From the NCBI GenBank assembly GCA_043811395.1, contig JBDRNE010000025.1, forward strand, positions 7,137-71,136: DNA of 64,000 nt, in the 5' to 3' direction. The translations under genes and the position numbers were made by a program. Below the pieces are notes generated by a model. The model made no database searches. It saw nothing but the letters and a program-made list of their open reading frames with translations, and was not told the DNA's origin. Positions 4,041 through 19,038 of this stretch are shown piece by piece; positions within the stretch are counted from its first letter, which is position 1, and each line of letters starts with the position of its first letter. This DNA comes from Candidatus Omnitrophota bacterium (GTDB taxonomy: Bacteria; Omnitrophota; Gorgyraeia; Tantalellales; Tantalellaceae).

Positions 4041-5054
4041 TTGAGGACGGAAAATACGGAGAGGAAAGTAATTGTTACCGGTGGAGCTGGGTTTATCGGA
4101 TCACATCTTGTTGATTATCTCGTAGAAAAAGGATGTGAGGTTACTGTAATTGATAATTTTTCAACCGGTAGAAGGTCTAATCTTAAACATATCATTAGTA
4201 ATATCAGATTGGTCGAAGCAGATGTTACGAATTTTGAAGCTATTTTGCCCCATTTCCAAAATAAAGACATAGTTTTTCATTTAGCCGCTTTAGCGGATAT
4301 AGTTCCCTCTATTGTAAATCCTCTTAATTATTACCGGTCTAATGTTAATGGTACTATCAATGTAATGGAAGCTGTACGTTTGTCCAAAGTCAAAAAAGTG
4401 GTCTATTCAGCGTCTTCTTCGTGTTATGGTATTCCCTCCGAAGAACCTCGCCCGACATCTGAAACAGATCCAATAAATCCGCAGTATCCTTACGCGCATA
4501 CTAAATTTTTGGGAGAAGAAATAGTTCTGCATTATGGTAAAATTTATGAAATGCCAGTTGTTTCTTTGCGGTTATTTAATGTTTATGGTCCAAGGTCAAG
4601 AACATCAGGTACTTATGGAGCGGTTTTTGGGGTGTTTTTGGCTCAGAAACTTAAAAATAGTCCGTATACTGTCGTTGGCGACGGTACGCAGACACGTGAT
4701 TTTATTTATGTAAGAGACGTAGCGCATGCTTTCGCGAAAGCCGGGTTTTCGGATGTTAAAAATGAAGTATTTAATGTGGGATCCGGCAATCCTCAGAGTG
4801 TGAATAAACTGGTTTCACTTTTGGGAGGAGATAAGATTCACATACCTAAAAGACCGGGAGAGCCGGAATATACCTGGGCGGACATAAGTAAAATAGCGGA
4901 ACGTCTTTCTTGGCAGGCGGAAGTGTCTTTTGAAGAAGGTGTTGAGAGAATCGTGAAAAAAATTGATTATTGGCAGTCAGCTCCGGTTTGGACACCAGAT
5001 ACGATCGAAAATGAAACAAAAGAGTGGTTTCGGTATTTGACGAAAGGTGTATAG
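4041..5054 (+). CDS. NAD-dependent epimerase/dehydratase (extended SDR; UDP-sugar 4-epimerase / UDP-glucuronate decarboxylase-like)
   Basis: TTG start at 4041 with AGGATAG RBS. N-terminal Rossmann motif VTGGAGFIGSH; Yxx(x)K-type catalytic region (YAHTKFLGE); length 337 aa. Confidence 0.75.
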   Translation: MRTENTERKVIVTGGAGFIGSHLVDYLVEKGCEVTVIDNFSTGRRSNLKHIISNIRLVEADVTNFEAILPHFQNKDIVFHLAALADIVPSIVNPLNYYRSNVNGTINVMEAVRLSKVKKVVYSASSSCYGIPSEEPRPTSETDPINPQYPYAHTKFLGEEIVLHYGKIYEMPVVSLRLFNVYGPRSRTSGTYGAVFGVFLAQKLKNSPYTVVGDGTQTRDFIYVRDVAHAFAKAGFSDVKNEVFNVGSGNPQSVNKLVSLLGGDKIHIPKRPGEPEYTWADISKIAERLSWQAEVSFEEGVERIVKKIDYWQSAPVWTPDTIENETKEWFRYLTKGV

Positions 5055-6586
5055 TGAATCAGAAAGCATTAGAAAAAATAAAAACAATAGATGAATTATC
5101 CCTGATTTCGGAGACTCTAAAAAACGAAGGTCGAAAAATTGTTCAGTGTCACGGGGTGTTTGATCTTGTCCATTTAGGGCATATCAGGCATTTTAATTTG
5201 GCAAAAAAAGAAGCAGATGTTCTGATCATAACACTTACCGCTGACAAGCATGTCAAGAGAGGTCCCGGGCGGCCTGTTTTTAATGAACATTTAAGAGCGG
5301 AAACATTGGCGTCACTTGCTGTTAGCGATTATGTGTGTGTTATGGATTTTCCAACAGCTATCGAGGCTATTAAGCGGATTAAACCTGATATCTATGCGAA
5401 AGGGCTTGATTATAAAGAAAAGAGTAAAGATGTTACCGGCAAGATTTATGATGAAGAAGAGGCTGTTCGTGCTGTCGGTGGAGAAGTAGTGTTTACGGAC
5501 GACATTACTTTCAGTTCTTCAAATTTGATAAATAGTTATCTTGATGTGTATCCGCCCAAAACCATTAAATATTTAAAAGCTATAGCAAAAAGGCATAGCA
5601 CGGATTTAATAGTAGAAAGTCTCAATTTATTAAAAGATTTAAAAGTACTGGTTATCGGGGATGCTATTGTTGATCAGTATCACTATTGCACGCCCATGGG
5701 GAAGTCTTCTAAGGAACACCTGGTTGCGAACAGATACGTTTCAAAAGAAATGTTTGCCGGAGGAAGTTTGGCTACGGCAAACAATGTAGCAAGTATTTGT
5801 GATAAAGTGGATCTTTTGACAGTATTAGGAGAAAAGAGTTCTTTTCAGGAGTTTATTGAAAATCGTTTAGTTGAGAACGTCAATCCCGTATTTTTTTATC
5901 GGTCGGATACCGGGACTATCGTTAAAAGAAGGTTTGTCAGCCAAGGGGTTAATCGGAAACTTTTTGAAATTTGTTATATGAAAGATGATGATATTTCATT
6001 GCCGGCAGAAACGAAAATACTAGAACATCTTAAAAAAAATATTGAAAATTATGATTTGGTTGTTGTCTCTGATTTTGGGCATGGGCTTATGACAAAAAGG
6101 ATTATTGATTTTATTTGTGAAAACGCGAAATACCTGGCGCTTAATGTTCAGACAAATAGCGCCAATATCGGGTTTAACCTTGTAACAAAATACCCAAAAG
6201 CGGATTGTGTATGTGTTGATGAAATGGAGCTCAGGTTTGCCACGCATGATAGATTCAGCGATTTGCGTACACACGCGAAGGATATTTACGGGCGTCTTGG
6301 GTGCAGGCATATTATTGCCACTCGTGGCGCTCATGGTTCATTGTGTTATTCAAAAGAAGACGGGTATCATGAAACGCCCGCGTTTTCATACCGGGTTATT
6401 GACGCGATAGGCGCGGGAGACGCGTTTTTCGCGTTTGTAGCGCCGTGCTTTGCTAAAGGGTTTCCTCAGGACTTAGTGTCATTTATCGGCAATAGTGTCG
6501 GGTCATTGGCGGTTCAAATAGTATGTAACAGGGAACCCGTGAAATCAGTGGATTTAATAAAATTTATTACGCGGCTTTTAAAATGA
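5054..6586 (+). CDS. bifunctional sugar-phosphate nucleotidyltransferase / PfkB-family sugar kinase, HldE(RfaE)-like but with reversed domain order (cytidylyltransferase-like N-terminus, ribokinase-like C-terminus)
   Basis: N-terminus carries the nucleotidyltransferase HxGH motif (CHGVFDLVHLGHIRHF) as in RfaE domain II. The C-terminal half is a PfkB/ribokinase fold with the DAIGAGDAF anion-hole/ATP motif. Probable start is GTG 5054, overlapping the upstream TAG (TAGTG); the track ORF begins at the in-frame GTG 5024. Confidence 0.65.
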   Translation: MNQKALEKIKTIDELSLISETLKNEGRKIVQCHGVFDLVHLGHIRHFNLAKKEADVLIITLTADKHVKRGPGRPVFNEHLRAETLASLAVSDYVCVMDFPTAIEAIKRIKPDIYAKGLDYKEKSKDVTGKIYDEEEAVRAVGGEVVFTDDITFSSSNLINSYLDVYPPKTIKYLKAIAKRHSTDLIVESLNLLKDLKVLVIGDAIVDQYHYCTPMGKSSKEHLVANRYVSKEMFAGGSLATANNVASICDKVDLLTVLGEKSSFQEFIENRLVENVNPVFFYRSDTGTIVKRRFVSQGVNRKLFEICYMKDDDISLPAETKILEHLKKNIENYDLVVVSDFGHGLMTKRIIDFICENAKYLALNVQTNSANIGFNLVTKYPKADCVCVDEMELRFATHDRFSDLRTHAKDIYGRLGCRHIIATRGAHGSLCYSKEDGYHETPAFSYRVIDAIGAGDAFFAFVAPCFAKGFPQDLVSFIGNSVGSLAVQIVCNREPVKSVDLIKFITRLLK

Positions 6587-7161
6587 AACAAGACATTAAA
6601 CAATATTTTGGAGTTTTAAAATCTCTTTTTGATGAAGTTATCGTTACAGCCGAGGGCGGCGTGGTATGCCAGTTTAATGAAGCTATCAAAATGGCGGTAG
6701 AACTTATTTTGGATCAGGCTGGGCTTGGCGGGAAAGTTTTATTTGTGGGTAATGGCGCGAGCGCCGCGATTTCAAGTCATATGGCAACGGATTTTTGGAA
6801 AAATGCCGGGGTAAAAGCTCTTTCGTTTAATGACAGTTCATTGCTGACGTGTATAAGTAATGATTTTGGATATAAGCATGTCTTTGAAAAACCTGTTGAA
6901 ATGTTTGCCGAAAGTGAAGACGTTTTAGTCGCGATTTCAAGTTCAGGAGAGTCTGAAAACATTTTGAACGCGGTAAGCGCGGCAAAAAAAATAGGGCTTA
7001 AAATTGTGACTTTGTCAGGATTTAAAGATAATAATCCTTTAAGAAAAATGGGAGACATAAATTTTTATATGCCTTCAGTAAGTTACGGGCATGTTGAGAT
7101 AACGCATCTTTCGGTGTGTCATTGTATGTCTGATATCATAAAGGTTGGTAAAAATGGATAA
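6583..7161 (+). CDS. gmhA: D-sedoheptulose-7-phosphate isomerase (SIS domain, GmhA)
   Basis: 192 aa SIS-domain protein with VLFVGNGASAAISSHMATDF and SSSGESENIL motifs typical of GmhA. ATGA overlap with the upstream gene. Confidence 0.75.
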   Translation: MKQDIKQYFGVLKSLFDEVIVTAEGGVVCQFNEAIKMAVELILDQAGLGGKVLFVGNGASAAISSHMATDFWKNAGVKALSFNDSSLLTCISNDFGYKHVFEKPVEMFAESEDVLVAISSSGESENILNAVSAAKKIGLKIVTLSGFKDNNPLRKMGDINFYMPSVSYGHVEITHLSVCHCMSDIIKVGKNG

Positions 7162-8227
7162 GTACAAGATTGACGATCATAAGCTTATGTATCATGTCTC
7201 AAGGGTAAATGATTGGTTGAATGGTAAAATTGTTTATCCGATATACATGGAAATATGTCCTTCAGGCGCGTGCAATCATAGATGCACTTATTGTGCTTAT
7301 GATTTTGCCGGGTATAAGAATAAGTTTTTAGAGACTGAAGTATTAAAAAAGAAATTATCGGAGTTAGGTGCCAGAGGACTAAAAAGCGTTGTGTATGCAG
7401 GTGAGGGCGAACCTTTTTTACATCCTGATATGGCGGATATAATAAGTCATACTGCAAAGTCGGGTATAGATGTCGGCATTGCAACGAATGCGGTGTTTTT
7501 TAATGAAGAAACAGCAGAAAAAACACTTAAAGATATTACTTGGCTCAAAGTCAGTATTTCCGGGGCGACGGAAGACACCTATAGAAAAATACACAGGTCG
7601 AAGCCTGGAGATATTTCCCGTGTTATTAACAATATGAAAACCGCTTCAGAAATAAAGAGAATAAAAGGTTATTCCTGCACTCTTGGTATGCAACTCTTAC
7701 TTTTGCCGGAAAATTGTAACGAAGCCGTAGATTTAGTTAAATTGGCTCGGGATATTGGAATGGATTACGTGGTCATAAAGCCTTACTCACAGCATCCGCA
7801 GAGCAAGACCACGAAATATAATTCTGTGAAGTATAGCGAATATGAACATTTAGGAGACAAAATTGCTCAATTAAATACAAACAAATTTAGTGCTGTTTTC
7901 AGAATACAAACAATGCGTGAATGGGACAGCGGAAATAGTGTACGCGGGTACAATCGATGTCTTTCAACCCCTTTTTGGTCGTATATTGATATGGAAGGCA
8001 ATGTGTGGGGATGCGCAATATATTTGGGTGATGAAAAGTTTTTGTATGGAAATATTTATGAAGAGTCTTTTCAGGAAATTTGGCAAGGGAAAAAACGTAA
8101 AAAATCTCTCGCATGGATGGAAAATGAGTTAGATATTTCCAAGTGCAGAGTTAATTGCCGGATGAATAAGATAAATAAGTATCTGTGGGATTTAAAAAAC
8201 CTGCCGGAACATGTAAATTTTATATAA
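7154..8227 (+). CDS. radical SAM enzyme with C-terminal Cys-rich (SPASM/twitch-like) extension
   Basis: CxxxCxxC motif CNHRCTYCAY near the N-terminus and glycine-rich SAM motif (VVYAGEGEPF). C-terminal cysteines (GCAIYLG ... KCRVNCRMN). Paralogous to the 12376 gene. Start ATG 7154 follows AAGGTTGG. Confidence 0.7.
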   Translation: MDKYKIDDHKLMYHVSRVNDWLNGKIVYPIYMEICPSGACNHRCTYCAYDFAGYKNKFLETEVLKKKLSELGARGLKSVVYAGEGEPFLHPDMADIISHTAKSGIDVGIATNAVFFNEETAEKTLKDITWLKVSISGATEDTYRKIHRSKPGDISRVINNMKTASEIKRIKGYSCTLGMQLLLLPENCNEAVDLVKLARDIGMDYVVIKPYSQHPQSKTTKYNSVKYSEYEHLGDKIAQLNTNKFSAVFRIQTMREWDSGNSVRGYNRCLSTPFWSYIDMEGNVWGCAIYLGDEKFLYGNIYEESFQEIWQGKKRKKSLAWMENELDISKCRVNCRMNKINKYLWDLKNLPEHVNFI

Positions 8228-8410: not shown

Positions 8411-8450
8411 AATTAATGTCTGATTTTTAAATAAACAACGGTAAAAACAA

Positions 8451-9284
8451 ATGCATGACTTAGAAAAAAAAGCTAAAGAACTAAGACGCGTTATAGTAAA
8501 AACAATTTGTAATGGCGGCGGGGGGCATACTCCCGCTTCTCTTTCAATAGTTGAAATATTAACGGTTCTTTATTACAAAATTTTAAATATTGATCCTAAT
8601 AATTTGAAATCTCTAGAAAGAGACCGGTTTATCTTAAGTAAAGGGCATGCGGGTGTGGCTTTATACGCGATTCTTGCCGAAAAAGGTTTTTTCCCGAAAG
8701 AAGAGCTTAATACCTTTGGTCAAAAAGGAACAATTTTAGGCGGGCATCCCGATATGCATAAAATTCCAGGAGTGGAAGCTTCAACAGGCGCTCTTGGTCA
8801 CGGATTTTCGTTTGGCGCGGGGATAGCTTTAGCGGGTAAACTTGATAAAAAAAATTACAGGGTTTTTGCGCTTTTAGGAGATGGAGAATGCCAGGAAGGT
8901 TCTATCTGGGAAACAGCTTTATTCGCGCCGCAACATGGTCTTGATAATCTAATTGCAATAATTGATTATAACAAATATCAGGCGTTGGATAATTTGGAAA
9001 AAATAGTTTCGTTAGGCGCGTTGGCTGATAAATGGAAAGCATTCGGTTGGGAAGTAAAAGAAGTTGATGGTCATGACATAACTGAGTTAACGAAAGTCTT
9101 AAAAAAAGTTCCTTTTTCTTTTGGTAAACCAAGTGTCGTAATCGCGAATACCATTAAAGGTAAAGGCGTGTCTTTTATGGAAAACGTGCCGATTTGGCAT
9201 TACAGACTGCCGAATGAAAAGGAAATGAAAATATTATGTAAAGAACTTGAAATAACAATGGATGAAAGGGTAGCTTCTGAATGA
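8451..9284 (+). CDS. transketolase, N-terminal (thiamine-diphosphate-binding) subunit
   Basis: 277 aa with GHTPASLSIVEIL, SKGHAGVALYA, GALGHGFSFGAGIA and LGDGECQEGSIWE, the canonical split-transketolase A subunit motifs. Confidence 0.85.
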   Translation: MHDLEKKAKELRRVIVKTICNGGGGHTPASLSIVEILTVLYYKILNIDPNNLKSLERDRFILSKGHAGVALYAILAEKGFFPKEELNTFGQKGTILGGHPDMHKIPGVEASTGALGHGFSFGAGIALAGKLDKKNYRVFALLGDGECQEGSIWETALFAPQHGLDNLIAIIDYNKYQALDNLEKIVSLGALADKWKAFGWEVKEVDGHDITELTKVLKKVPFSFGKPSVVIANTIKGKGVSFMENVPIWHYRLPNEKEMKILCKELEITMDERVASE

Positions 9285-10228
9285 GAGATGCTTATTTGCG
9301 TGCTTTATATAGTTTAGCCAAAAACGATGAACGAATTTTCGCGCTTGTCGCGGATAATGGCGCGATTGTTTATGACAAGTATCGGCAAGATTTTCCGGAA
9401 AGGTTCATTAATTTTGGCATAGCGGAAGCCAATATGGTAAGCGTTGCCGCGGGTCTTGCTTCATGCGGGAAAGTACCTTTCGCGTATACCATTTCTAATT
9501 TCATCACAATGCGCGCGTTTGAACAGGTAAGAAACGATGTTTGTATGCAAAAAATGAATGTTAAATTAGTTGGTATCGGTGCGGGGTTTGTTTATAGCAA
9601 TTTAGGACCTACGCATCACGCTGTTGAGGATATCGCCCTTATGTCGGTTTTACCGGGCATGACAATTTTTTCCCCGGCAGATCCAATAGAAGCCTATGAA
9701 GCAACCATAGCCTCAGCAGAGATAAATGGACCAGTATATTTGCGTCTTGCAACCGGTGGCACGCCTGTAATTTACAAAGAAGATTATGAATTTAATCCCG
9801 GCAAGGGTGTGATCTTAAGGGAAGGTAGAGATGTCGCAGTTATTACCACAGGCAATATCACGCATGAAGTTATTCTTGCTATAGATGAACTTAAAAGAGA
9901 AGGCATATCAGTGCGCCTAATAAATATGCATACGATAAAACCTATTGATAAACAGATTATAGTTAAAGCGGCTGAAGATACCGGGGCTATTTTGACTATT
10001 GAGGAACATTCACTTTTTGGCGGGTTAGGTAGTTTGGTATCATTGATTTTAGTTGAAACAGATGTTTCGGTAAGTTTCAAGAGTTTAGGGTTCGACAATA
10101 CTTTTCCAGAAGGGTATGGAACATATCAGGATATGAAAAAAATGAATGGTCTTTCAAAAGATGATTTTATAAGAGAAACAAAACTTCTTTATGAAAGAAA
10201 AATGCAGAAAAACGGAATAGTGTTTTAG
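9281..10228 (+). CDS. transketolase, C-terminal (pyrimidine-binding / C-terminal domain) subunit
   Basis: 315 aa; ATGA overlap with the N-terminal subunit; FGIAEANMVSVAAGLA and GPTHHAVEDIALM motifs. Confidence 0.85.
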   Translation: MRDAYLRALYSLAKNDERIFALVADNGAIVYDKYRQDFPERFINFGIAEANMVSVAAGLASCGKVPFAYTISNFITMRAFEQVRNDVCMQKMNVKLVGIGAGFVYSNLGPTHHAVEDIALMSVLPGMTIFSPADPIEAYEATIASAEINGPVYLRLATGGTPVIYKEDYEFNPGKGVILREGRDVAVITTGNITHEVILAIDELKREGISVRLINMHTIKPIDKQIIVKAAEDTGAILTIEEHSLFGGLGSLVSLILVETDVSVSFKSLGFDNTFPEGYGTYQDMKKMNGLSKDDFIRETKLLYERKMQKNGIVF

Positions 10229-10242
10229 GGTAAAAGGAAATT

Positions 10243-11688
10243 ATGGGGGGAAAGAACGAAATAAAAAAGGTATTATTGGTTTCGCCAAGGTTTAATAAAG
10301 GCAGACATCAAATATCTATTCATCCTTTGGCAGGTCTTGGGTATATTGCCGAATCTTTAAAAAATAACGGTTTTGAAGTTAATGTTTTCGACATGAACTT
10401 GCAGTATTCTGAAAAGGATTTGGCAGAGAAAATACATAGTTTTCTTCCCGATATGGTAGGTTTTTTGATTATGACTTTTGGCTATAAAGATACTTATCGT
10501 CTGATTGAAGGAGTTAAAGAGCTGGAGCCGAATGTTAAAATTGCTGTTGGTGGACCACATATTTCTACTTTAAAAGAAAAGGTTTTACAGGAATGCTCCG
10601 CAATTGATTATGGCGTTTTGCTCGAAGGTGATAAAAGTTTTGTTAGGTTGTGTCTTAATGACGACGTAAAGAATATTCCGGGGATAGTTTATCGCGCGGA
10701 AGGTAAAATAAGAAAAAATGAGTTTAATGAATTTATTGAAAATCTAAATGAATTACCTTTTCCTAGATATGAAGCATTTGAACTTGAAAAGTACCCTGTT
10801 AAACAGATAGGCATTGTTACTTCAAGGGGGTGCCCGTATAAGTGCATATATTGTCCGGTAGTTTCTGCCATAGGTCGAAAATTTAGAGCTAGGAACGCTG
10901 ACAATATTGCAGAAGAAATAGAATATTGGCACAGTAAAGGATACAGAGAAATTCTTATTTTGGACGACAATTTTACTTTAGTTCGTTCACGCGTGGAAGA
11001 ATTATGTTGGTTGCTTATAAACAAAGATTTAAAAGACATTAGACTTAAATGTCCCAATGGTATAAGAGCTGATAAAACAGATTATGAACTTTTAAAGCTT
11101 ATGCGAAAAGCCAGGTTTGATATGATCTCTTTTGGAGTGGAATCTGCCAGTAGTAAGGTTTTAAAAAATATAAATAAAGACGAGAATATTGATGTAATAG
11201 AAGAAGCTATAAAAAACGCGTGTAGTTTAGGGTTTGAAGTTAGCCTGTTTTTTATAATAGGTTCTCCGGGAGAAACCCCGGAAGATGTTCAAAAGTCTTT
11301 TTCTTTGGCATTAAAATATCCAGTTGCTGTCAGTAATTTTTATAATATTATTCCGTTTCCTGATACAGAACTTTTTGACTGGATTAGTAAAAATAAATAT
11401 TTCTTGCGTCCATTGGAAGACATTATGAATAACGCGTCACATTTTATAAATGAGCCCTGTTTTTTTACGCCTGAAATGTCTTACGAAGAAAGAAAGCGCG
11501 CTTTTAAAAATGGTAAGAAAATTTCGAAAATTATACGAAAAAGGTTTATCGAAAAAAAACTAAAGGGTCCTGAAGTTTTAAAGAGATTGTTCAGCTGTAT
11601 TTACACTATTGGGGTTGTGGAACAAGTTTTAACGACAAATAAATCTGTAATAAAACTGAAGGAAAAATTGAAACAAGCAGTTTGTTAA
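10243..11688 (+). CDS. cobalamin (B12)-binding domain radical SAM enzyme (class B)
   Basis: N-terminal B12-binding Rossmann-like region (KKVLLVSP...GLGYIAESLKNNGFEV...IAVGGPHIS) followed by SRGCPYKCIYCPV (CxxxCxxC) and an elongated radical SAM core. Confidence 0.8.
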   Translation: MGGKNEIKKVLLVSPRFNKGRHQISIHPLAGLGYIAESLKNNGFEVNVFDMNLQYSEKDLAEKIHSFLPDMVGFLIMTFGYKDTYRLIEGVKELEPNVKIAVGGPHISTLKEKVLQECSAIDYGVLLEGDKSFVRLCLNDDVKNIPGIVYRAEGKIRKNEFNEFIENLNELPFPRYEAFELEKYPVKQIGIVTSRGCPYKCIYCPVVSAIGRKFRARNADNIAEEIEYWHSKGYREILILDDNFTLVRSRVEELCWLLINKDLKDIRLKCPNGIRADKTDYELLKLMRKARFDMISFGVESASSKVLKNINKDENIDVIEEAIKNACSLGFEVSLFFIIGSPGETPEDVQKSFSLALKYPVAVSNFYNIIPFPDTELFDWISKNKYFLRPLEDIMNNASHFINEPCFFTPEMSYEERKRAFKNGKKISKIIRKRFIEKKLKGPEVLKRLFSCIYTIGVVEQVLTTNKSVIKLKEKLKQAVC

Positions 11689-11701
11689 CGAAGGAGCACA
11701 A

Positions 11702-12364
11702 ATGGGAAGCCTTCTAAATGTAATAACGCCGCTTCATAAAAGGGCAAAAAGAGATTATGTCGCGAGGATGATAAAAGATAAAGTCGATTGTTCCCGAATT
11801 GCCCGCCAATATGGAAAAGATTATTGGGATGGTGACAGAAAATACGGGTATGGCGGGTATAAATATGACGGTAGATGGAGTGTTGTTGCACAAGGGTTAA
11901 TTGATTTATATAAACTTCCAGTAAATGCAAAGATTTTAGATGTTGGGTGCGGGAAAGGGTTTCTTTTGTATGAATTAAAAAAACTTCTGCCCCGTGCGGA
12001 AATAAAAGGATTTGACATTTCAAGCTATGCAATTGAAAATTCAAAGGAAGAGGTCCGGGATAGTTTGTTTGTGCATAAAGCAGAGGACGAGTTTCCTTTT
12101 AATGACAAAGAATTTGATCTGGTTATTTCGATCTCAACGCTTCACAATTTGTGCGTGGGCGACTTAAAAAGCGCTCTCAAAGAAATTGAGAGAACCGGCC
12201 GGAATAAGTATGTTACGATGGAAGCTTACAGGAACGAAGAAGAACTTTTTAATCTCGAGTGTTGGGCATTGACTTGTGAATCGTTTTTTAGACCCGAAGA
12301 ATGGCAGTATTTGTTTAATGAGTTTGGGTATTCGGGTGATTTTGAATTTATTTATTTTGAATAA
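11702..12364 (+). CDS. class I SAM-dependent methyltransferase
   Basis: Motif I ILDVGCGKGFLL, acidic motif II (EIKGFDIS), motif III (FDLVISISTLHNL). AAGGAG RBS 6 nt upstream of ATG 11702. Confidence 0.65.
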   Translation: MGSLLNVITPLHKRAKRDYVARMIKDKVDCSRIARQYGKDYWDGDRKYGYGGYKYDGRWSVVAQGLIDLYKLPVNAKILDVGCGKGFLLYELKKLLPRAEIKGFDISSYAIENSKEEVRDSLFVHKAEDEFPFNDKEFDLVISISTLHNLCVGDLKSALKEIERTGRNKYVTMEAYRNEEELFNLECWALTCESFFRPEEWQYLFNEFGYSGDFEFIYFE

Positions 12365-12375
12365 TAAGAGGGGTT

Positions 12376-13446
12376 ATGGGGAATATTTATACTAAAATGA
12401 AAATATTTCATTTCAAAGAAAAAATAGATTCTCTTCCAAGGGAAAAAGGAAAAGTTTTAGCGCCTATTCACATCAGAATAAAACCGACAAATGTGTGCAA
12501 TCATAACTGTTCGTATTGCGCGTATAGGGCGGACGATTTGCAGTTGGGCAAAGACATGGTTCAGCGTGATTTTATTTCTAAAGAAAAAATGATGGAAATA
12601 ATTGATGATGTAATTGAAATGGGGGTTAAAAGTGTTACTTTCTCCGGCGGGGGAGATCCTTTTTGTTATCCATATCTTTTTGACGCGGCAAAAAGATTAT
12701 CCGAATCAGATGTTAAATTTGCTTCACTTACAAATGGGGCTTTGCTGGACGGGGAAAAAGCTGAAATTTTCGCGAAAAACGCTTCCTGGATTCGAATTTC
12801 TATGGATGGGTGGGATGACGAAAGTTATTCTGAGTATCGGGGGGTACCCAAAGGAGAATTTACGAAAGTTTTGAATAACATAAAAAATTTTAAAACGTAT
12901 AATGGTGCCTGTTTTTTAGGGGTTTGTATTATTGTTGATAAAAAAAATGCGTCACATGTATATGAATTAGCGGAACAAATAAGAGAGAGCGGGGCTAATA
13001 GCGTGAAAATAGCGCCGTGTATTGTTAGTAACAGCGGTAAAGAGAATAATGAGTATCATGAGCCTATATTTGATAAAGTTAAAGTAGAGATTGCTCGAGT
13101 TATAAAAAAACTTGGTGATGTTGATTTTGAGATATTTGATTCATACCACGGACAACTAGAAACTTTTGAAAAAGAATATTCATGGTGCCCGTATCTGCAG
13201 ATTTTGCCTGTTATTGGCGCGGATCTCAATATTTATCCGTGTCAGGATAAGGCTTATAATCTTGACGAAGGGCTGATAGGATCTATAAAAGAAGTCAGGT
13301 TTAAAGATTTTTGGTTTTCTGATAAAAATAAGTTTTTTAAAGTTAATCCTTCGCGGCATTGCGCGCATCATTGCGTGGCAGACGGCAAAAATAAACTCAT
13401 TTTAGATTACTTGAATGTAGACAAAAATCATATGGGGTTTGTATAA
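12376..13446 (+). CDS. radical SAM enzyme with C-terminal Cys-rich (SPASM/twitch-like) extension; paralog of 7154-8227
   Basis: CNHNCSYCAY cluster, SFSGGGDPF SAM-binding motif, C-terminal cysteines (WCPYLQ ... YPCQDK ... HCAHHCV). Confidence 0.7.
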   Translation: MGNIYTKMKIFHFKEKIDSLPREKGKVLAPIHIRIKPTNVCNHNCSYCAYRADDLQLGKDMVQRDFISKEKMMEIIDDVIEMGVKSVTFSGGGDPFCYPYLFDAAKRLSESDVKFASLTNGALLDGEKAEIFAKNASWIRISMDGWDDESYSEYRGVPKGEFTKVLNNIKNFKTYNGACFLGVCIIVDKKNASHVYELAEQIRESGANSVKIAPCIVSNSGKENNEYHEPIFDKVKVEIARVIKKLGDVDFEIFDSYHGQLETFEKEYSWCPYLQILPVIGADLNIYPCQDKAYNLDEGLIGSIKEVRFKDFWFSDKNKFFKVNPSRHCAHHCVADGKNKLILDYLNVDKNHMGFV

Positions 13447-13462
13447 CCAAAAGAAGTATCGG

Positions 13463-14482
13463 ATGTATTTAAAAAAAACGAAATTGCATAAACGTCAAAG
13501 GTTGCATAGAGCCGGAGATTTGAGAACTATTTCGCTTGATGTGACATCCCTGTGTAGTATGAATTGTCCTCATTGTTATGCTGAATCATTTGTAAATGCG
13601 AAACCTATAGAACTTGATGTTTTGAAGCGCGCCATGGACGAAGCATATGAACTTGGTGTATTTCACTATGTTTTTCAGGGAGGAGAGCCCATTGAGGATC
13701 CTGAGAGGTTGGAAGCGATATTTCGCATGTGTTATCCTGATGAAACTTACATGAATGTTGTAAGTAACGGGTGGCACATGAATCGTGATATGATACGTTG
13801 GCTAAAGAGTTTAAAGGTTGATAAAATTGCTTTTAGTCTGGATTCGGGGATAGAAGAAGAACATGATAAGAACAGGCGAGCGGGTTCTTATAACAGAGTT
13901 CTTGAGGCCGTGGATATTGTTTTGGGAGAAGGTCTTTTAACATCCATTTCTATCGTAGTTACCCATCACTCTTTGCATTCGGCAGGATTCAAGGCCGCGT
14001 ATGATTATGCCGAAAGTAAAGGAATAAGACTGGATGTGCAGATAGCCGAACCTGTCGGAAAGTGGGATGGCAACACAACATGTCTTATGACTCCCGACGA
14101 TTCTCTGTATATCAAGGAATTGCAAAGAAAAGCTCCTATCTTAAAAAACGGACAATGTATGGTGAATCGCGATATTTTTTGCGGAGAACAAGATCATTGT
14201 CCCGCCGGAACCGAATTTATGGGGCTTTCCATTGACGGTGAGTTATTGCCGTGTAATTTTCTTCAATTCAGCGTAGGGAATATACGCAAGGAAACAATAG
14301 GAGAAATGCGTAGGAAATTGTTGACGAATCATTGGTTTTGGGGACAACACCCTTGTTGCTTATGTGGAGAAGATCCTGACTTTATAAATTCATTTATTAC
14401 TCCTTATGTCGGGCAGAAAAAACCGCTTGATGCGAACAAAATCTTTAATTTAATGAAAGGGGCAGAGCATGGGAGAGTTTGA
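13463..14482 (+). CDS. radical SAM / SPASM-domain enzyme
   Basis: CSMNCPHCYA cluster and FQGGEP motif; C-terminal SPASM-like cysteine pattern (FCGEQDHCPAG ... LPCNF ... HPCCLCGE). Track ORF begins at TTG 13439; ATG 13463 is preferred. Confidence 0.65.
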   Translation: MYLKKTKLHKRQRLHRAGDLRTISLDVTSLCSMNCPHCYAESFVNAKPIELDVLKRAMDEAYELGVFHYVFQGGEPIEDPERLEAIFRMCYPDETYMNVVSNGWHMNRDMIRWLKSLKVDKIAFSLDSGIEEEHDKNRRAGSYNRVLEAVDIVLGEGLLTSISIVVTHHSLHSAGFKAAYDYAESKGIRLDVQIAEPVGKWDGNTTCLMTPDDSLYIKELQRKAPILKNGQCMVNRDIFCGEQDHCPAGTEFMGLSIDGELLPCNFLQFSVGNIRKETIGEMRRKLLTNHWFWGQHPCCLCGEDPDFINSFITPYVGQKKPLDANKIFNLMKGAEHGRV

Positions 14483-15236
14483 TGGTTTTAAGAAAACAGG
14501 GATAGATTCAGATGTTGAAAAGGACCTGGAAAAGCATTTTCGCAGATTTAATATTGGCCCCTTGGATGCGCTTAAACTTTTTCCCGTACTTGCTCGCCGG
14601 CAGTGGTTGAAGCGATTCTTAGCCCATGTTGAGCTGTTCCAAAAGACCTTAGATGTGCCTGGGGATATTGCGGAGTTGGGAGTCTTTCGCGGATTGGGTC
14701 TTATGACGTGGGCTAATTTGCTGGAAGCCTACTGCATAGGGGACCGCACAAAGATTGTTTATGGGTTTGACAATTGGAAGGGGTTTACTGAACTTGATCC
14801 AGAAGACGGAAAAGACTCTACCTCAGTTCAAAAGTTTGTTGGTGGGTTTTCTCCGGAAAAATACTATAACGAGATAAAACAAGCGATTGCCATTTTTGAT
14901 AAAGACAGATTTATTCCATGGAAACCACGTGTAAAATTGGTCAAAGGAGATGTAGTAAAAACAGTACCAAAATTTATAAAAGAGAATCCAGGAACACGTT
15001 TTTCTTTGATTCATTTTGATTGCGATCTATATCGTCCTACGAAGATTGCACTAGAAGTTCTATGGCCTGTTTTGTCTCGAGGTGGAGTAATGTTGTTCGA
15101 TGAATATTCTATTTCGGAATGGCCGGGAGAAACCAGAGCTGTTGATGATTTTTTTAACAACAAAGCAAATGTTAGGATCAAGGCGCTTTCGTGGACCAAT
15201 GCTCCAGCAGGCTATGTTATTAAGGGAAGCGATTGA
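14469..15236 (+). CDS. TylF/MycF/NovP-family sugar O-methyltransferase (class I SAM MT)
   Basis: 255 aa with ELGVFRG(L) SAM-binding motif and DCDLYRPT metal/substrate motif resembling macrocin O-methyltransferases; overlaps the upstream gene by 14 nt. Confidence 0.55.
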   Translation: MGEFDGFKKTGIDSDVEKDLEKHFRRFNIGPLDALKLFPVLARRQWLKRFLAHVELFQKTLDVPGDIAELGVFRGLGLMTWANLLEAYCIGDRTKIVYGFDNWKGFTELDPEDGKDSTSVQKFVGGFSPEKYYNEIKQAIAIFDKDRFIPWKPRVKLVKGDVVKTVPKFIKENPGTRFSLIHFDCDLYRPTKIALEVLWPVLSRGGVMLFDEYSISEWPGETRAVDDFFNNKANVRIKALSWTNAPAGYVIKGSD

Positions 15237-15381
15237 GGGGGATAATAAAAAGCCCACCGCTCAAATAGGAGAGGAAAGTGGTAGGGGGGGCGCATAGGAA
15301 CTATGTTGTTGATTTTGGTTCTTTTTTTGAAAACGTACTGTATAAACGAGGCGATATCATAAAGAGGCAGGTGGGGGACGT

Positions 15382-16287
15382 TTGACATATTTGATAGTAG
15401 GATCGGACAGTCTTATCGGAGGGGCTTTGATGTCCGAGTTGAAACGGACTGGCAGGCAGGTAATAGGGACGACAAGGCGCCGCGAAACCGTAGATACGGA
15501 TCATTTTTATCTTGACCTATTAAAAGACCCCGGAACGTGGAATTGTCCCGATTTTGTTACTGTTGCTTTTGTCTGTGCCAGTGTAACCAGGATCGAAAGT
15601 TGTAGACGTGATCCAGTTGAAAGCGCTCGTGTGAACGTAAAAGGAATATTCGAATTGGTTAGGAATTTGACTGAGAAGGGGATATTTGTGATTTACCTGT
15701 CGACGAATCAGGTGTTTGACGGGACGGTACCACATCGTTTGCCAGATGATCAATTGTCTCCCATTACAGAATATGGAAAACAGAAGGCAGAAGCCGAACG
15801 CTTGATCAGCCGGTTTGATCCTCTTGTTGCGATTGTACGTTTTTCAAAGATTTTGGAACCGAGGAATCCGCTTTTTTGCGAGTGGCAAAGGCTTCTTCGA
15901 AAAGGGAAAGTTATTCATCCTTTTTTCGATATGGTTATGGCTCCGGTGGGGCTTGCTTGTGCGGTTTCCATATTATCGATTATGGGAGAACATTGTTTAC
16001 CCGGTATTTTTCAAGTGTCCGGAAATGAGGACGTTTCGTATGCCGAAGTTGCCCATATAGGAGCGACAATATGTGGCGTAGATGAAAGATTAGTACAGCC
16101 GGTTCTTTCATCCAGATCCGGGTGTTATTTAGAAAAAGTAGTCGAACACACGACTATGGATGTGACCAGGTTAAAATTAGTTTTTGGAGTAGAAATACCG
16201 GATGTAAGAACTACAATTAAGACAATATTTACTGAACTACTGGCATTCGAAGAACGTTCTGTATCTCTGAAAAAAGGAGAATATTAA
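15382..16287 (+). CDS. RmlD-like NAD(P)-dependent sugar reductase/epimerase (dTDP-4-dehydrorhamnose reductase family)
   Basis: TTG start; N-terminal LIVGSDSLIGGAL nucleotide-binding loop; YGKQK catalytic YxxxK; ~300 aa, typical RmlD size. Locally higher GC than the rest of the window. Confidence 0.55.
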   Translation: MTYLIVGSDSLIGGALMSELKRTGRQVIGTTRRRETVDTDHFYLDLLKDPGTWNCPDFVTVAFVCASVTRIESCRRDPVESARVNVKGIFELVRNLTEKGIFVIYLSTNQVFDGTVPHRLPDDQLSPITEYGKQKAEAERLISRFDPLVAIVRFSKILEPRNPLFCEWQRLLRKGKVIHPFFDMVMAPVGLACAVSILSIMGEHCLPGIFQVSGNEDVSYAEVAHIGATICGVDERLVQPVLSSRSGCYLEKVVEHTTMDVTRLKLVFGVEIPDVRTTIKTIFTELLAFEERSVSLKKGEY

Positions 16288-16289
16288 TA

Positions 16290-17474
16290 ATGCCAACAAA
16301 CCCGGTCGAAATGTGTGTGTTATGTGGTCACGATACTTTTAAAGAATTTTCCCAATCTATGCGGTTAAAGTCTGTTACTTCGGATTGTAAATTCTGGGAT
16401 TGTGGCGGAATTATCGAGGTTTGCGAATATTGCGGGCATATCCAAAAACGAATGGATCCTTTGTGGAGGGAAGAAGTATCTCGGATATATGCCAACTATA
16501 CGATATACCACTTAAGTGAGGGGAAAGAACAGGTTGTTTTTGATGATGATAGTTCAGCAGTTTTTCCCCGGTCCTTGCGGATATTTGAGTCCTTGGAAGG
16601 ACAAGTTAACATATCGGAGCAAGGTTGTTTGATGGATGTGGGATGCGGAAATGGAGAATTACTGTGTTTGTTCAATAAAAAATATCCTGGGTGGGTTCTT
16701 GCTGGATACGAGCAGGACGAAAAATGTAGAGGAAATATTGTCCGAATACCTGGTGTGCGGCATTTTTATTCCGGCGAGATCGATCTGATCGATCAGATCG
16801 ATCAGAAATTTGATTTCATCACACTTATGGATGTTTTGGAACATGTATTCCAGCCAGTGCAGTTATTGAAACAGCTGCGTAGTAAGCTCGTTTCGGGCGG
16901 TATGGTACTTGTCCATGTGCCTGATTATTCACAGAATCCGTTTGATTTGTTAGTTATGGATCATTGTTCTCATTTTACACCGGAAACGCTCATCCAGACC
17001 GCCCGGCATTCTGGTTTTGAAGTAAGAGTTTTCGCTACGGACTGGATACCGCGATACATTACGGTTGTACTGTGTGTTACGAAAAACCAGGCCATGCAAA
17101 AGATCGCGAAAAGGGATCCGAAGGATGTGGCAAAAGCAGTGGCAGTTGATATCAAATGGTTGGAGGATGTGGTTGAGCACGCTCGTAAGAGTGCAGATAA
17201 GGGCGAGTTGGGTGTTTTTGGAACAGCGATAGCCGGAACTTGGCTGGCTGGCAGGTTGGGTTCCTTGGCATGTTTTTTTGTGGATGAAGATCCTATGAGA
17301 TTGGGGAAAACGCACATGGGTAGGGAAGTTATTCATCCGTTTGATGTGCTCGAAAACAACGAAGTATATTTACCCGTGGTGCCTGAAAAAGCTACACAAA
17401 TTAATAATCGCTTCAAAAGATCTGAAAAATTATTGAAACTTATTCTTCCTCCGATGTTTTCTAGCAAATTATGA
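16290..17474 (+). CDS. NDP-hexose C-methyltransferase-like enzyme (N-terminal Zn-ribbon, class I MT core, C-methyltransferase C-terminal domain; TylC3/EvaC-like architecture)
   Basis: CVLCGHD ... CEYCGH zinc-ribbon; LMDVGCGNGELL motif I; C-terminal GVFGTAIAGTWLAGRLG ... FFVDEDP Rossmann-like tail characteristic of sugar C-methyltransferases. AAAAGGAGAA RBS upstream. Confidence 0.55.
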   Translation: MPTNPVEMCVLCGHDTFKEFSQSMRLKSVTSDCKFWDCGGIIEVCEYCGHIQKRMDPLWREEVSRIYANYTIYHLSEGKEQVVFDDDSSAVFPRSLRIFESLEGQVNISEQGCLMDVGCGNGELLCLFNKKYPGWVLAGYEQDEKCRGNIVRIPGVRHFYSGEIDLIDQIDQKFDFITLMDVLEHVFQPVQLLKQLRSKLVSGGMVLVHVPDYSQNPFDLLVMDHCSHFTPETLIQTARHSGFEVRVFATDWIPRYITVVLCVTKNQAMQKIAKRDPKDVAKAVAVDIKWLEDVVEHARKSADKGELGVFGTAIAGTWLAGRLGSLACFFVDEDPMRLGKTHMGREVIHPFDVLENNEVYLPVVPEKATQINNRFKRSEKLLKLILPPMFSSKL

Positions 17475-17674
17475 ACAACTGTTTGCTAAGTTTTTTATGT
17501 TCTTTACAAGATAATTTAGAGCTATGTGGGCTAAATGGATGAATGGTTTGTTTGTGAGGTTAGTGGAGAAATTTTGATAAAGAATGTGTAAGTAAAAAGC
17601 TTTGAAACCACAACATTTTGTGGTTAACTGCGGTGTTTCCATAAAAACAGTACCTTGAATAGGAGACGTAGTTA

Positions 17675-19009
17675 ATGAAAAGCGATAAGATGAGGAAAAT
17701 GTTAAAATTTGGAATCAGGCAGTTTTATCATATTCGGGAAGGCGGAATTCCTGTACTATTTCGAAAAGTGGTTATTTTATTCCGGGTGTCTTTTGAAATG
17801 TTATTAGTCTTGTTGGCGGTTCCGATAGTGCTTTTTGCGCGGTTGTTAAAACCAATTATCTGGATACGGTTTGGGTGTCTTATTAGTCCCAGGATTGGAC
17901 ATTTTGCGGCCAATACGGAAATGTATATGTGTTTTCGCGATATGGACGAGCGTAGTAAGCGCCGATTAGATCTGTTTTATTGTACAAAACCGATTTGTAA
18001 TCGCCAGTTAAAAAAAATGTGGGGACGAGTTTTACATATTTTTAAGCTAGTACGCTGGTGTGATAAAGCAAATCAATTATTGCCGGGAGGAAAAGATTAT
18101 AGGGTTGTTTTATTGTCGGATAGAGATACATGTGGTGTCCTTCAGCAGGTTAAGAAACATCTTTTTTTTACAGACAGAGAAGATCGGTTCGGTAAGAAAG
18201 AGATCGAAAAAATGGGGATTTCTACAGATGCTTCTTTTGTTTGTTTTTACGCTCGTGACGCCGCGTATCTTGATTCTATAGCTCCGGGAATTGATTGGAA
18301 GTATCACAACTACAGAGATTCAAACATAAAGGACTATCTTCTTGCGGCAGAAGAACTAACAAGAAGAGGGCATTTTGCCGTTAGAATGGGAGCTGTGGTG
18401 AAAGATGAGTTAAAAGTCAGTAATCCCTCAATAATTGATTACGCATCAAAGGGAAGAACCGATTTTATGGATATATATCTTGCAGCAAACTGCAAATTTT
18501 TTCTTTCATCTACAGGAGGAATTAATGCGGTAACGACAGTGTTTAGGCGTCCGGTAGTTTTTGTGAATAATATGCCGCTTGCATGTTTTCCTGCTTCAAA
18601 TTATGGGGACTTATTTATTCCAAAAAAATTATGGTTGCGAGACGAACGTCGTTTTTTAACTTTTCAAGAGATTTTAGATTCGGAAATAGCTTTTTTCTTT
18701 TTTTTCGAACAGTATGAGAATAGAGGAATTGAACTTGTTGACAATACTCCGGAAGAGATTATGGATGTGACTGTGGAAATGGATCAGCGTTTAAACGGAC
18801 AATGGCAAACTATGGAAGAAGATGAAGAATTGCAGAGATATTTTTGGTCGTTGTACAATTCGGAAGAATACAAACGATATTGTAAGATGTTTCGAAGATT
18901 TGGCAATATGCCGTATCATCGAATACCATGTCGTATTGGTGCTAAGTTTTTGCGAGAAAATAAAGAATTGCTATACGGCAAGAGGATAATGGGAATTGAT
19001 CTCAAATAA
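17675..19009 (+). CDS. hypothetical protein, possibly a GT-B-like glycosyltransferase / capsule-type transferase; N-terminal hydrophobic segment
   Basis: 444 aa; AGGAGA RBS; N-terminal TM-like helix (LLVLLAVPIVLFARLL); no motif I can assign with certainty. The layout (N-terminal domain plus C-terminal STGG-containing region FFLSSTGGINA) is reminiscent of GT-B sugar transferases. Confidence 0.35.
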   Translation: MKSDKMRKMLKFGIRQFYHIREGGIPVLFRKVVILFRVSFEMLLVLLAVPIVLFARLLKPIIWIRFGCLISPRIGHFAANTEMYMCFRDMDERSKRRLDLFYCTKPICNRQLKKMWGRVLHIFKLVRWCDKANQLLPGGKDYRVVLLSDRDTCGVLQQVKKHLFFTDREDRFGKKEIEKMGISTDASFVCFYARDAAYLDSIAPGIDWKYHNYRDSNIKDYLLAAEELTRRGHFAVRMGAVVKDELKVSNPSIIDYASKGRTDFMDIYLAANCKFFLSSTGGINAVTTVFRRPVVFVNNMPLACFPASNYGDLFIPKKLWLRDERRFLTFQEILDSEIAFFFFFEQYENRGIELVDNTPEEIMDVTVEMDQRLNGQWQTMEEDEELQRYFWSLYNSEEYKRYCKMFRRFGNMPYHRIPCRIGAKFLRENKELLYGKRIMGIDLK

Positions 19010-19038
19010 GCTAAAATTGTTTTCAAAGCGTACATATT

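Follow-up and report, generated by a model that had tools for sequence, protein, structure and literature searches.

A probable nucleotide-sugar tailoring module in a glycan assembly locus of an Omnitrophota bacterium

We analysed a 64-kb stretch of DNA from a Candidatus Omnitrophota bacterium (contig JBDRNE010000025.1; the whole stretch is called the window in the following) with a focus on the interval 11702-17474, at whose end three consecutive genes encode a TylF/MycF-like sugar O-methyltransferase (TylF-like), an RmlD-like reductase and a three-domain protein composed of a zinc ribbon, a class I methyltransferase core and a Rossmann-like C-terminus (Zn-ribbon methyltransferase). We suggest, with a probability of roughly 0.6, that this interval is the downstream part of a conserved nucleotide-sugar tailoring module within a longer glycan locus and not a separate graft, as which it had been regarded in the original prediction on account of its elevated guanine plus cytosine content (GC). 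The synteny shared by block and flanks, together with a gene for a TIGR04372-family glycosyltransferase directly downstream, places the real unit at about 4041-19009 (Table 1). In the closest relatives this module recurs with its gene order unchanged, and variable forms of it occur across many bacterial phyla.

Synteny and relatives of the module

The nearest homologues of the three proteins and those of the lower-GC flanking genes share the same contigs (L001, L002, L084 and L085 among the loci that we fetched) in the same order, and these syntenic loci are themselves low in GC (34-44%). The best homologues of the block thus come from the same lineage as those of the rest of the locus, which contradicts the idea of a horizontally grafted cassette. 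The coordinates given in the original prediction for the open reading frames (ORFs) were right and its example of a GC-rich run is present at 15477, inside the RmlD-like gene; its list of three gene families was correct as well but omitted two radical S-adenosylmethionine (SAM) genes, rSAMb and rSAMc, within its own interval.

Around the Zn-ribbon methyltransferase, 73 loci were compared. RmlD-like genes and genes for the class I methyltransferase MT220 co-occurred with it in 45 loci each, the C- and N-terminal halves of a split transketolase (TktC and TktN) in 31 and 28, a GalE-like dehydrogenase in 31, an HldE-like protein in 19 and a GmhA-like protein in 17. The RmlD-like gene stands immediately upstream of the methyltransferase gene in 31 of 67 loci, and in P0025 the two are fused. 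MT220 almost always adjoins the transketolase pair, and rSAMc adjoins the TylF-like gene on its upstream side in seven of the eight loci that have a TylF homologue of at least 50% identity. Homologues of the TIGR04372 glycosyltransferase were found in 10 of the 73 loci (within flanks of about 10 kb), and a transferase of this family is annotated on plasmid pDCAR1, where the module contains two or three Zn-ribbon methyltransferase paralogues. The TIGR04372 enzyme is the likely transferase for the product of the module.

The closest matches of the three proteins are mostly unlabelled metagenomic sequences. Named relatives of the methyltransferase come from Nitrospinae, Planctomycetota, Riflebacteria, Nitrospirota and Desulfovibrionales, those of the TylF-like protein from Omnitrophota (75%), Acidobacteriota, Geobacter and Nitrospirota (all 69-79% identical), and those of the RmlD-like protein from Omnitrophota, Pyrinomonadaceae and a Pacearchaeota bin. 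We also scanned one genome per GTDB species and obtained 271 relatives, distributed over Acidobacteriota, Verrucomicrobiota, Planctomycetota, Omnitrophota, Desulfobacterota, Proteobacteria, Nitrospirota and others.

The three families had been taken as hallmarks of actinomycete deoxysugar pathways, and the block as a recently acquired tailoring cassette of the mycarose/vancosamine/noviose type. It is true that the nearest solved structures belong to actinomycete antibiotic pathways (CalS11, MycF and NovP for one protein, MtmC, KijD1 and TcaB9 for another) and that no other part of the window is as rich in GC or as deviant in composition as the block. However, the structural likeness reflects which proteins were crystallised, with 13-15% identity and unmatched Pfam models in the case of the C-methyltransferases, and with 42.6% GC the block is nowhere near actinomycete values. 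Among the relatives listed for the three proteins, and among 80 genome loci, no credible actinomycete was present, the sole actinobacterial labels belonging to a contig (L047) from a bin of uncultured Bifidobacterium and to a Solirubrobacteraceae metagenome-assembled genome (L082) in which only the core matched. Together with the low-GC synteny of the nearest relatives, this makes an actinomycete graft extremely improbable.

Within the conserved frame the related loci differ in their tailoring genes, and the TylF-like protein and rSAMc are slightly closer to their L085 counterparts (79% and 69%) than the backbone is (52-61%), which hints at modular reshuffling among related loci.

Table 1. Genes of the module in the window, one outlying gene, and gene order in related loci (MT, methyltransferase; rSAM, radical SAM enzyme; SDR, short-chain dehydrogenase; TktN and TktC, transketolase halves; ThDP, thiamine diphosphate; SIS, sugar isomerase domain)
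Feature	Position	Strand	Match or gene order
GalE/Pal-like short-chain dehydrogenase SDR4041	4041..5054	+	Pfam Epimerase 2e-61
HldE-like nucleotidyltransferase and sugar kinase	5024..6586	+	CTP_transf_like residues 43-134, PfkB 207-498
GmhA-like SIS-domain sugar-phosphate isomerase	6583..7161	+	SIS_2 5e-16
Radical SAM/SPASM enzyme rSAMa	7145..8227	+	Radical_SAM and SPASM domains
Split transketolase, N-terminal (ThDP-binding) half	8451..9284	+	Transketolase_N 2e-42
Split transketolase, pyrimidine-binding and C-terminal half	9281..10228	+	Transket_pyr 2e-32, Transketolase_C 3e-26
B12-binding radical SAM enzyme	10243..11688	+	B12-binding and Radical_SAM domains
Class I SAM methyltransferase MT220 (220 amino acids)	11702..12364	+	Methyltransf_31 1e-19
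Radical SAM enzyme rSAMb	12376..13446	+	Radical_SAM 1e-23
Radical SAM/SPASM enzyme rSAMc	13439..14482	+	Radical_SAM 6e-20, SPASM 1e-4
TylF/CalS11-type sugar O-methyltransferase	14469..15236	+	PF05711 2e-15
Non-coding gap, 145 bp	15237..15381	.	sequence read
RmlD-like NAD(P)-dependent nucleotide-sugar reductase	15382..16287	+	PF04321 3e-26, full length
Zn-ribbon/class I methyltransferase/C-terminal Rossmann-like protein	16290..17474	+	fold match to MtmC, KijD1, TcaB9
TIGR04372-family glycosyltransferase	17675..19009	+	NCBIfam TIGR04372 230 bits (cutoff 45)
Class I methyltransferase	29336..30016	+	72% identical to L084 8392-9078
Locus L084			SDR, HldE-like, SIS, SDR, TktN, TktC, MT, rSAM, MT, RmlD-like, Zn-ribbon MT; 53-75% identity
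Locus L003 (64% GC)			TktN, TktC, MT220, rSAM, rSAM, TylF, RmlD-like, Zn-ribbon MT, as in the window; rSAM/SPASM upstream
Locus L003, continued	12443-20242		then NeuB, sulfotransferase, MptE/Maf-like protein, flagellin
Loci L001, L002, L085/L086			variants; tailoring genes between MT220 and the RmlD-like gene differ
Locus L088, Maridesulfovibrio chromosome			reductase and methyltransferase fused in one protein; NeuB-type synthase at 1-531
Locus L087, plasmid pDCAR1 (133 kb), Solidesulfovibrio carbinolicus DSM 3852	NZ_CP026539.1 99133-132266		module, TIGR04372 glycosyltransferase, MptE/Maf-like protein

The upstream genes of the module were compared with their syntenic counterparts one by one. 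SDR4041 is 67% identical to the L084 gene, and proteins 52-58% identical to it occur near the methyltransferase in many phyla; its best relatives in the PDB are 4-epimerases and Pal, and with the motifs SASSSCYG and PYAHTK it carries no clear dehydratase signature, so that we rejected an assignment as 4,6-dehydratase in favour of a GalE/Pal-like one. The HldE-like protein (73% identical to the L084 gene) has its domains in reversed order compared to Escherichia coli HldE and matched the NCBIfam HldE model (153 against a cutoff of 521) and the rfaE domain models below cutoff, and the GmhA-like protein (60% identical to the L084 gene) reached 108 bits with the gmhA model TIGR00441, below the cutoff of 209. 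No GmhB-like gene was recognised in the window. Because of these sub-cutoff matches, the reversed domain order and the lacking GmhB-like gene, the activated sugar is called heptose-like here only by analogy. Identities are 71-75% for TktN in L002 and L084, 70-71% for TktC and 70-73% for MT220 in L001, L002 and L084, and 67-68% for rSAMb in the same three loci (60% in L003); in L003, the gene that precedes the transketolase pair is 52% identical to rSAMa.

Two genes depart from this common order. The gene for the B12-binding radical SAM enzyme (GC 33.5%, z score of GC at third codon positions, GC3, of -2.2) is a one-gene insertion in this lineage, because TktC adjoins MT220 directly in L001, L002, L003, L084 and L085/L086. 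The methyltransferase gene at 29336-30016 can be seen as a module gene displaced 12 kb downstream, because its L084 orthologue lies inside the module, between a radical SAM gene and the RmlD-like gene; with 41.9% GC it shows the largest difference between observed and expected GC in the window (+0.029).

Nucleotide composition of the block

The GC elevation at 14470-17470 is real but amounts to 42.6% and not to the 47-52% estimated by eye in the original prediction, whose estimate of 35-40% for the flanks was correct (11702-17474, 40.4%; window, 36.97%). Only three 300-bp windows reach 47-48%, namely 14550-14849 (47.3%), 16950-17249 (48.0%) and 17100-17399 (47.3%), and between these peaks two troughs of 36.7-37.3% lie inside the block; the GC-richest of the 64 1-kb windows is 15001-16000 (0.438). 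We counted as genes 57 ORFs of at least 150 amino acids, every one on the plus strand, leaving out two minus strand ORFs of that size that overlap plus strand genes. Among these 57 the RmlD-like gene ranks first in GC (42.8-43.0%), the Zn-ribbon methyltransferase gene second (42.8%) and the TylF-like gene fourth (41.4-41.5%), and the chance of some three adjacent genes all falling within the top four ranks is small (p ~0.0075).

Most of this excess is driven by the proteins themselves, since the GC expected when each amino-acid sequence is encoded with the codon preferences of the window is already near the observed value (40.0, 41.9 and 40.6% expected for the TylF-like, RmlD-like and Zn-ribbon methyltransferase genes, 41.5, 43.0 and 42.8% observed, with a gene mean of 37.2%). 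Protein composition thus explains between about two thirds and four fifths of the excess, and GC at first codon positions is 0.516-0.519 in the three genes. Codon usage was tested by amino-acid-conditioned resampling in place of a raw Karlin codon-bias ranking, which was dropped because it is confounded by gene length. The TylF-like gene (codon-usage z 1.3, GC3 z 0.8) and the RmlD-like gene (0.0 and 1.2) did not differ from their neighbours. In regressions of gene GC on host-locus GC, performed one family at a time across the fetched loci, the GC of a gene follows that of its host with a slope close to 1 in every family, as expected for long-resident genes. The TylF-like gene (41.4%, compared to 42.8% predicted from seven other hosts, z -0.5) and rSAMc (exactly on expectation) are family-typical, and the nine module genes tested other than the RmlD-like/methyltransferase pair all stayed within 0.7 standard deviations (sd).

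Several observations nevertheless weigh against an undisturbed, long-resident module. In sliding 3-kb windows of mononucleotide-normalised tetranucleotide usage, 14501-17500 is the most deviant of 123 (correlation 0.532, z -3.1). When synonymous codons were redrawn for the same proteins the tetranucleotide signal was lost (z -0.58), and a rank of 3 or better was reached in 2% of 60 such simulations. The anomaly is driven by dinucleotide usage: the relative abundance of GpC is 0.92 in the block compared to 1.26 elsewhere, the lowest stretch of the window, and that of CpG 1.08 compared to 1.28; gene by gene, GpC is lowest in the RmlD-like gene (0.76) and also low in the methyltransferase gene (0.97; window mean 1.24). 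In none of L001, L002 and L084 does the orthologous block stand out from its flanks in this way. Measured against the family regressions, GC is 4.3 points too high in the RmlD-like gene (z 1.3) and 5.6 points too high in the methyltransferase gene (z 2.0), and the codon usage of the latter does deviate from its neighbours (z 2.6), with the largest positive GC3 deviation of the window (z 3.0). The pair is furthermore bracketed by gaps of 145 bp (Table 1) and 200 bp (17475-17674), both among the three largest intergenic gaps of the module (the third, of 223 bp, precedes TktN), in which most remaining genes overlap or lie no more than 15 bp apart; the TylF-like and RmlD-like orthologues overlap in L002 and are separated by 16 nucleotides in L003. 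It is possible that 15237-15381 represents the left seam of a two-gene cassette.

An origin of the GC excess in amino-acid composition throughout was rejected after the tetranucleotide, synonymous-resampling and ortholog-block tests. A signature intrinsic to the gene families holds for the TylF-like gene and rSAMc and fails for the RmlD-like/methyltransferase pair. What is left is a mild composition residue confined to this pair, the GC of the TylF-like gene being fully a property of its protein.

Such a residue could have been left by a local swap, in which the RmlD-like and Zn-ribbon methyltransferase genes (15382-17474) were replaced by counterparts from another environmental bacterium, not an actinomycete, with somewhat higher GC and a different dinucleotide signature, and have since been partly ameliorated with their function unchanged. 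The GC surplus over the expectation for a 37% GC host, the GC3 and GpC values, the tetranucleotide rank unexplained by protein sequence, the missing contrast in the orthologous blocks and the flanking gaps would all fit such an event, and so would the habit of the pair to travel together in many phyla, the presence of the module on a plasmid and the variable tailoring set between MT220 and the RmlD-like gene. On the other hand, pairwise identities among the window, L001, L002 and L084 reveal no incongruence. TktC, MT220 and rSAMb are 65-78% identical in every pair, the methyltransferases 51-58% in every pair, and the RmlD-like proteins of the window, L001 and L084 55-59% (L002 encodes a different reductase, ~30% identical); because the identities of these last two proteins are equally low in all pairs, the window copies are no outliers and merely belong to faster-evolving families. 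No closer donor-like homologue was found, the best non-self matches being 61% and 53% identical, and the codon-usage distance of the RmlD-like gene has a z score of 0.0. With 57 genes, deviations of 1.3-3 sd become borderline once multiple testing is allowed for, the genes at 29336, 51146 and 56857 deviate as much and the region at 33-36 kb deviates more, and the 64-kb window that served as baseline of composition may differ from, and hence misrepresent, that of the genome. The seams contain no repeats or mobility genes. Neither in nor flanking the two gaps did we find repeats beyond chance, tRNAs, Rfam matches or a convincing terminator, and a promoter and terminator scan gave no convincing operon boundary at the block. 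We therefore consider a local swap possible but the less probable account compared to a module resident as a whole. A donor search by dinucleotide signature among the fetched loci was not discriminating (nearest L086, delta* 0.085).

The strongest synonymous-site anomaly of the window lies elsewhere, at 33058-36287, where two hexapeptide acyltransferase genes, a FabH-like and a FabG-like gene have GC3 z scores of -1.3, -4.1, -2.0 and -3.0, i.e. towards low GC, exceeding the flagged block.

The Zn-ribbon methyltransferase and its partner enzymes

The Zn-ribbon methyltransferase (394 amino acids, Methyltransf_23 2e-17, SAM motif DVGCGNG) had been described as having the three-part architecture of nucleoside diphosphate (NDP)-hexose C-methyltransferases. 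This description holds at the level of the fold, although neither of the two flanking Pfam domains, PF08421 and PF08484, was matched even at E 0.5, which adds to the points that speak against our interpretation of the module. A phmmer search of the PDB likewise returned generic methyltransferase cores only and did not find TcaB9, so that it took the predicted structure and a family profile to reveal the relationship. The structure was modelled with AlphaFold from 66 homologues (mean confidence, pLDDT, 94.7) and compared to the PDB with Foldseek; the top 18 matches were all MtmC, KijD1 and TcaB9 (~430 columns, E 1e-16 to 1e-14, template modelling (TM) score 0.60-0.65), and the next fold class consisted of unrelated methyltransferases (E 5e-10, TM 0.38). 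The full-length alignment also covers the putative C-terminal nucleotide-sugar-binding domain. Identity to TcaB9, KijD1 and MtmC is 13-15%, and the family profile matches MtmC (1.5e-6) and TcaB9 (7e-6) over the methyltransferase core.

At the level of single residues, the zinc ribbon cysteines C9xxC12 and C45xxC48 are conserved to at least 90% in the 66 homologues, and E184-H185 and D224-H225 are invariant in the family. The TcaB9 mutants H225N and H181N lose 5.5 and 5.8 bits compared to the wild type when scored against the family profile, and because of these lower scores both catalytic histidines align with conserved histidines. TcaB9 Tyr222 is not conserved; Y222F scores slightly better on the profile and the position aligns with a non-aromatic residue. 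A profile alignment with the canonical C-methyltransferase of L085 brings CxxC...CxxCGxVQ, EH/AH (vlEH/vfAH) and DH/EH in register, and towards the C-terminus the motif GVFGTAIAGTWL...FFVDEDPMRLGKTHMGREV parallels, by eye, AGYGAPAKGNTL...YIIDTTPFKQGHYTPGMHV of the canonical member.

Since fold, CxxC motifs, family profile and catalytic histidines agree, the Zn-ribbon methyltransferase belongs, as far as the predicted fold can tell, to a family (about 1,360 clusters at 50% identity, E <=1e-30) that is a distant sister of the NDP-hexose C-methyltransferases. It shares with the NDP-hexose C-3 methyltransferases TcaB9, KijD1, MtmC and TylC3 the three-domain layout, a similar length (394 compared to 405-426 amino acids), the four cysteines CxxC...CxxCGxVQ of a putative zinc ribbon, the GxGxG SAM site and a putative C-terminal nucleotide-sugar domain with GxGxxxxG...D-x-x-P-x-K/R-x-G, and with the TcaB9-type enzymes the equivalents of H181 and H225, the acid before H225 and a keto-reductase encoded adjacent. 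It differs from them in its low identity, the two unmatched Pfam domains and the absent Tyr222, in being an environmental, mostly Gram-negative family, and in its context of heptose-type activation genes and a split transketolase instead of the RmlA/RmlB pathway to thymidine diphosphate (TDP)-hexoses.

Two further observations concern these genes. A perfect 23-nucleotide palindrome, TCTGATCGATCAGATCGATCAGA, is present in the methyltransferase gene at 16784-16806, overlapping the codons for IDLIDQIDQ. At 15641-16858 of L085, a canonical C-methyltransferase gene (PF08421 and PF08484) stands beside RmlC-like and reductase genes; as L085 also has the closest relative of the TylF-like protein, both C-methyltransferase families can coexist in one locus.

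An alternative for the function of the Zn-ribbon protein is O- or N-methylation of a sugar or another acceptor, with the RmlD-like enzyme acting elsewhere and no methylate-reduce-methylate sequence. The distance from proven C-methyltransferases, the unmatched Pfam domains and the lost Tyr222 are compatible with it, as are the lack of a clear 4,6-dehydratase to supply a 4-keto substrate and the two or three paralogues in some loci, which suggest several target positions. That the full-length fold matches are exclusively C-methyltransferases, that the two catalytic histidines are conserved together with the acid before His225, and that the gene is tightly adjacent to or even fused with that of a keto-reductase-type enzyme renders this alternative rather unlikely, and we prefer C-methylation. 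In this adjacency and fusion the two enzymes resemble the TylC3/TylC2-type pairing of C-methyltransferase and ketoreductase and the bifunctional MtmC.

The assignments of the two partner enzymes in the original prediction were confirmed. The TylF-like protein belongs to PF05711 (57.1 bits, gathering cutoff 23), and an identical protein is named 'TylF/MycF/NovP-related O-methyltransferase' at NCBI. Its best solved relative is CalS11, a TDP-rhamnose 3'-O-methyltransferase (9e-30, 194-residue alignment), whose FDLDLY aligns with its FDCDLY, a DxDLY motif of the putative metal-binding type. By analogy to CalS11 it plausibly acts on a nucleotide-bound sugar. While it resembles CalS11, MycF and NovP in family and motif, it belongs to a highly conserved environmental subfamily (119 non-self homologues among the matches listed, as 90%-identity clusters, all 69-79% identical across phyla) that is nearly always paired with a radical SAM/SPASM enzyme. 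To our knowledge such a partnership has so far not been described for TylF-family enzymes.

The RmlD-like protein matches PF04321 over its full length (92.7 bits, cutoff 27) and the RmlD structure 8ctr (7e-11). With 76.2 bits it stays far below the cutoff of 224 of the equivalog TIGR01214 and hence has an RmlD-like fold but is not RmlD (dTDP-4-dehydrorhamnose reductase) itself. The product listed by NCBI has 298 instead of the 301 amino acids of the ORF, which would put the start at 15391. Like RmlD and the TylC2-type 4-ketoreductases it is a full-length PF04321 protein with matches to RmlD structures, encoded directly upstream of a methyltransferase; unlike RmlD, it has no RmlA, RmlB or RmlC gene beside it.

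The glycan locus and a proposed pathway

Pfam annotation of the large ORFs shows the window to be a single giant glycan-assembly locus, which extends beyond 64 kb in the uncultivated Omnitrophota host. It includes sugar-activation genes, many short-chain dehydrogenases, an aminotransferase, acyltransferases, nine glycosyltransferases of families GT2 and GT4, a Wzy_C protein, a fused ATP-binding cassette (ABC) exporter and a WecA-like initiating transferase, as well as at least seven SAM methyltransferases, six B12-binding radical SAM enzymes and three further radical SAM enzymes. GC skew is strongly positive along the whole length. No tRNAs or Rfam matches were found in the window and no mobility gene, such as one for an integrase or transposase, among its 57 ORFs. 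The number of nine radical SAM genes in one locus suggests, from the gene content, extensive oxygen-independent sugar methylation or rearrangement.

Under the preferred reading of a resident tailoring module, a seven-carbon (or longer) sugar phosphate would be isomerised by the SIS protein and then phosphorylated and nucleotide-activated by the HldE-like protein. Oxidation to a keto-sugar might be the task of the GalE-like dehydrogenase or of a dehydrogenase of the radical SAM type, whereupon the Zn-ribbon methyltransferase would C-methylate the carbon beside the keto group via an enolate, with the conserved His/acid pair as in TcaB9, and the RmlD-like enzyme would reduce the keto group. The pairing of methylation with subsequent reduction is supported by the fusion protein and the adjacency statistics. 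The TylF-like enzyme may then O-methylate a hydroxyl on the still nucleotide-bound sugar, as CalS11 does, before the TIGR04372 enzyme would move the finished sugar onto the growing glycan. The split transketolase might serve ketose phosphate supply, C2 chain extension according to the logic of the lincomycin octose, or C2 branching as proposed for AviB1/AviB2. Counting against this scheme, SDR4041 as a source of the keto-sugar looks like an epimerase and not like a 4,6-dehydratase, the substrate sugar is read from the neighbouring genes only, with an APH-like kinase or NeuB replacing or accompanying the heptose-type genes in some loci, and among all proteins of the module only the glycosyltransferase scores above an NCBIfam cutoff.

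ThDP enzymes that branch or extend sugars by two carbons reportedly include AviB1/AviB2 (eurekanate, proposed) and YerE (yersiniose), and the octose of lincomycin is said to be made via LmbR, LmbN, LmbP, LmbK and LmbO. Like these systems the module combines a two-subunit ThDP enzyme (E1_dh/Transketolase_N and Transket_pyr/Transketolase_C) with GmhA-like and HldE-like proteins, and by analogy it may follow a similar logic, in which a non-standard higher sugar would be made and activated, or a keto-sugar branched. Unlike them it has a transketolase-type pair and not a transaldolase, a pyruvate dehydrogenase E1 pair or an enzyme of the acetolactate synthase type. A simple supply of sedoheptulose 7-phosphate by the transketolase pair is equally possible. 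The Coxiella virenose/dihydrohydroxystreptose pathway was considered as a known counterpart and rejected, as its papers mention no transketolase. In our literature search no paper was found on the gene combination of this module and nothing on TIGR04372, and a paper on the Kuenenia surface layer (S-layer) glycan contained no gene-level information.

With regard to the final glycan, related modules resemble Maf-type flagellin glycosylation islands, with NeuB, sulfotransferase, MptE/Maf-like and flagellin genes in L003, an MptE-like gene on pDCAR1 and NeuB in L088, and their gene content indicates that they may serve flagellin glycosylation in some lineages. The window, unlike these islands, lacks Maf, NeuB and flagellin genes and has Wzy_C, the ABC exporter and the WecA-like transferase, which indicates a lipid-linked polysaccharide or a glycan of the S-layer/O-antigen type as its probable product. 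Taken one step further, the module might represent an undescribed, phylum-spanning pathway to a C- and O-methylated sugar that is either higher-carbon or two-carbon-branched, in which the split transketolase would extend or branch a pathway intermediate, the radical SAM enzymes would perform oxygen-independent redox or rearrangement reactions, and the new sister family of TcaB9-type enzymes would install a methyl branch; the product would be placed on flagellins in Maf loci and on polysaccharides or S-layer glycans in Omnitrophota, Planctomycetota, Acidobacteriota and Desulfobacterota. We regard this extended proposal as speculative and, in its entirety, improbable.

Some other genes of the locus are listed here for completeness. 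The B12-binding radical SAM genes are located at 10243-11688, 21822-23411, 36314-37828, 44017-45480, 54063-55457 and 55438-56856, and a RmlC-like/RmlD-like set separate from the module at 39.8-43.2 kb. Four ORFs of 407-651 amino acids (308-1531, 19817-21772, 30522-32330 and 57596-58963) have no Pfam match better than chance level (E ~0.01); the first three have no NCBIfam match either, and the GC of 30522-32330 is only 30.7%.

The question of horizontal transfer carries little weight, as the GC bump is small and reflects at most the routine shuffling in surface-glycan loci. More relevant is that the three genes belong to a conserved, uncharacterised module with a large unnamed methyltransferase family, so far annotated merely as 'class I SAM-dependent methyltransferase' and, in many phyla that have been little studied, consistently linked with genes for a reductase, for a split transketolase and for sugar activation. 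The module is carried by cultured strains, namely Solidesulfovibrio carbinolicus DSM 3852 (on pDCAR1) and possibly Herbaspirillum sp. Sphag64, so that its chemistry and its glycan are experimentally reachable. If confirmed, the finding would provide a new branched or methylated sugar and a better annotation for well over a thousand protein clusters.

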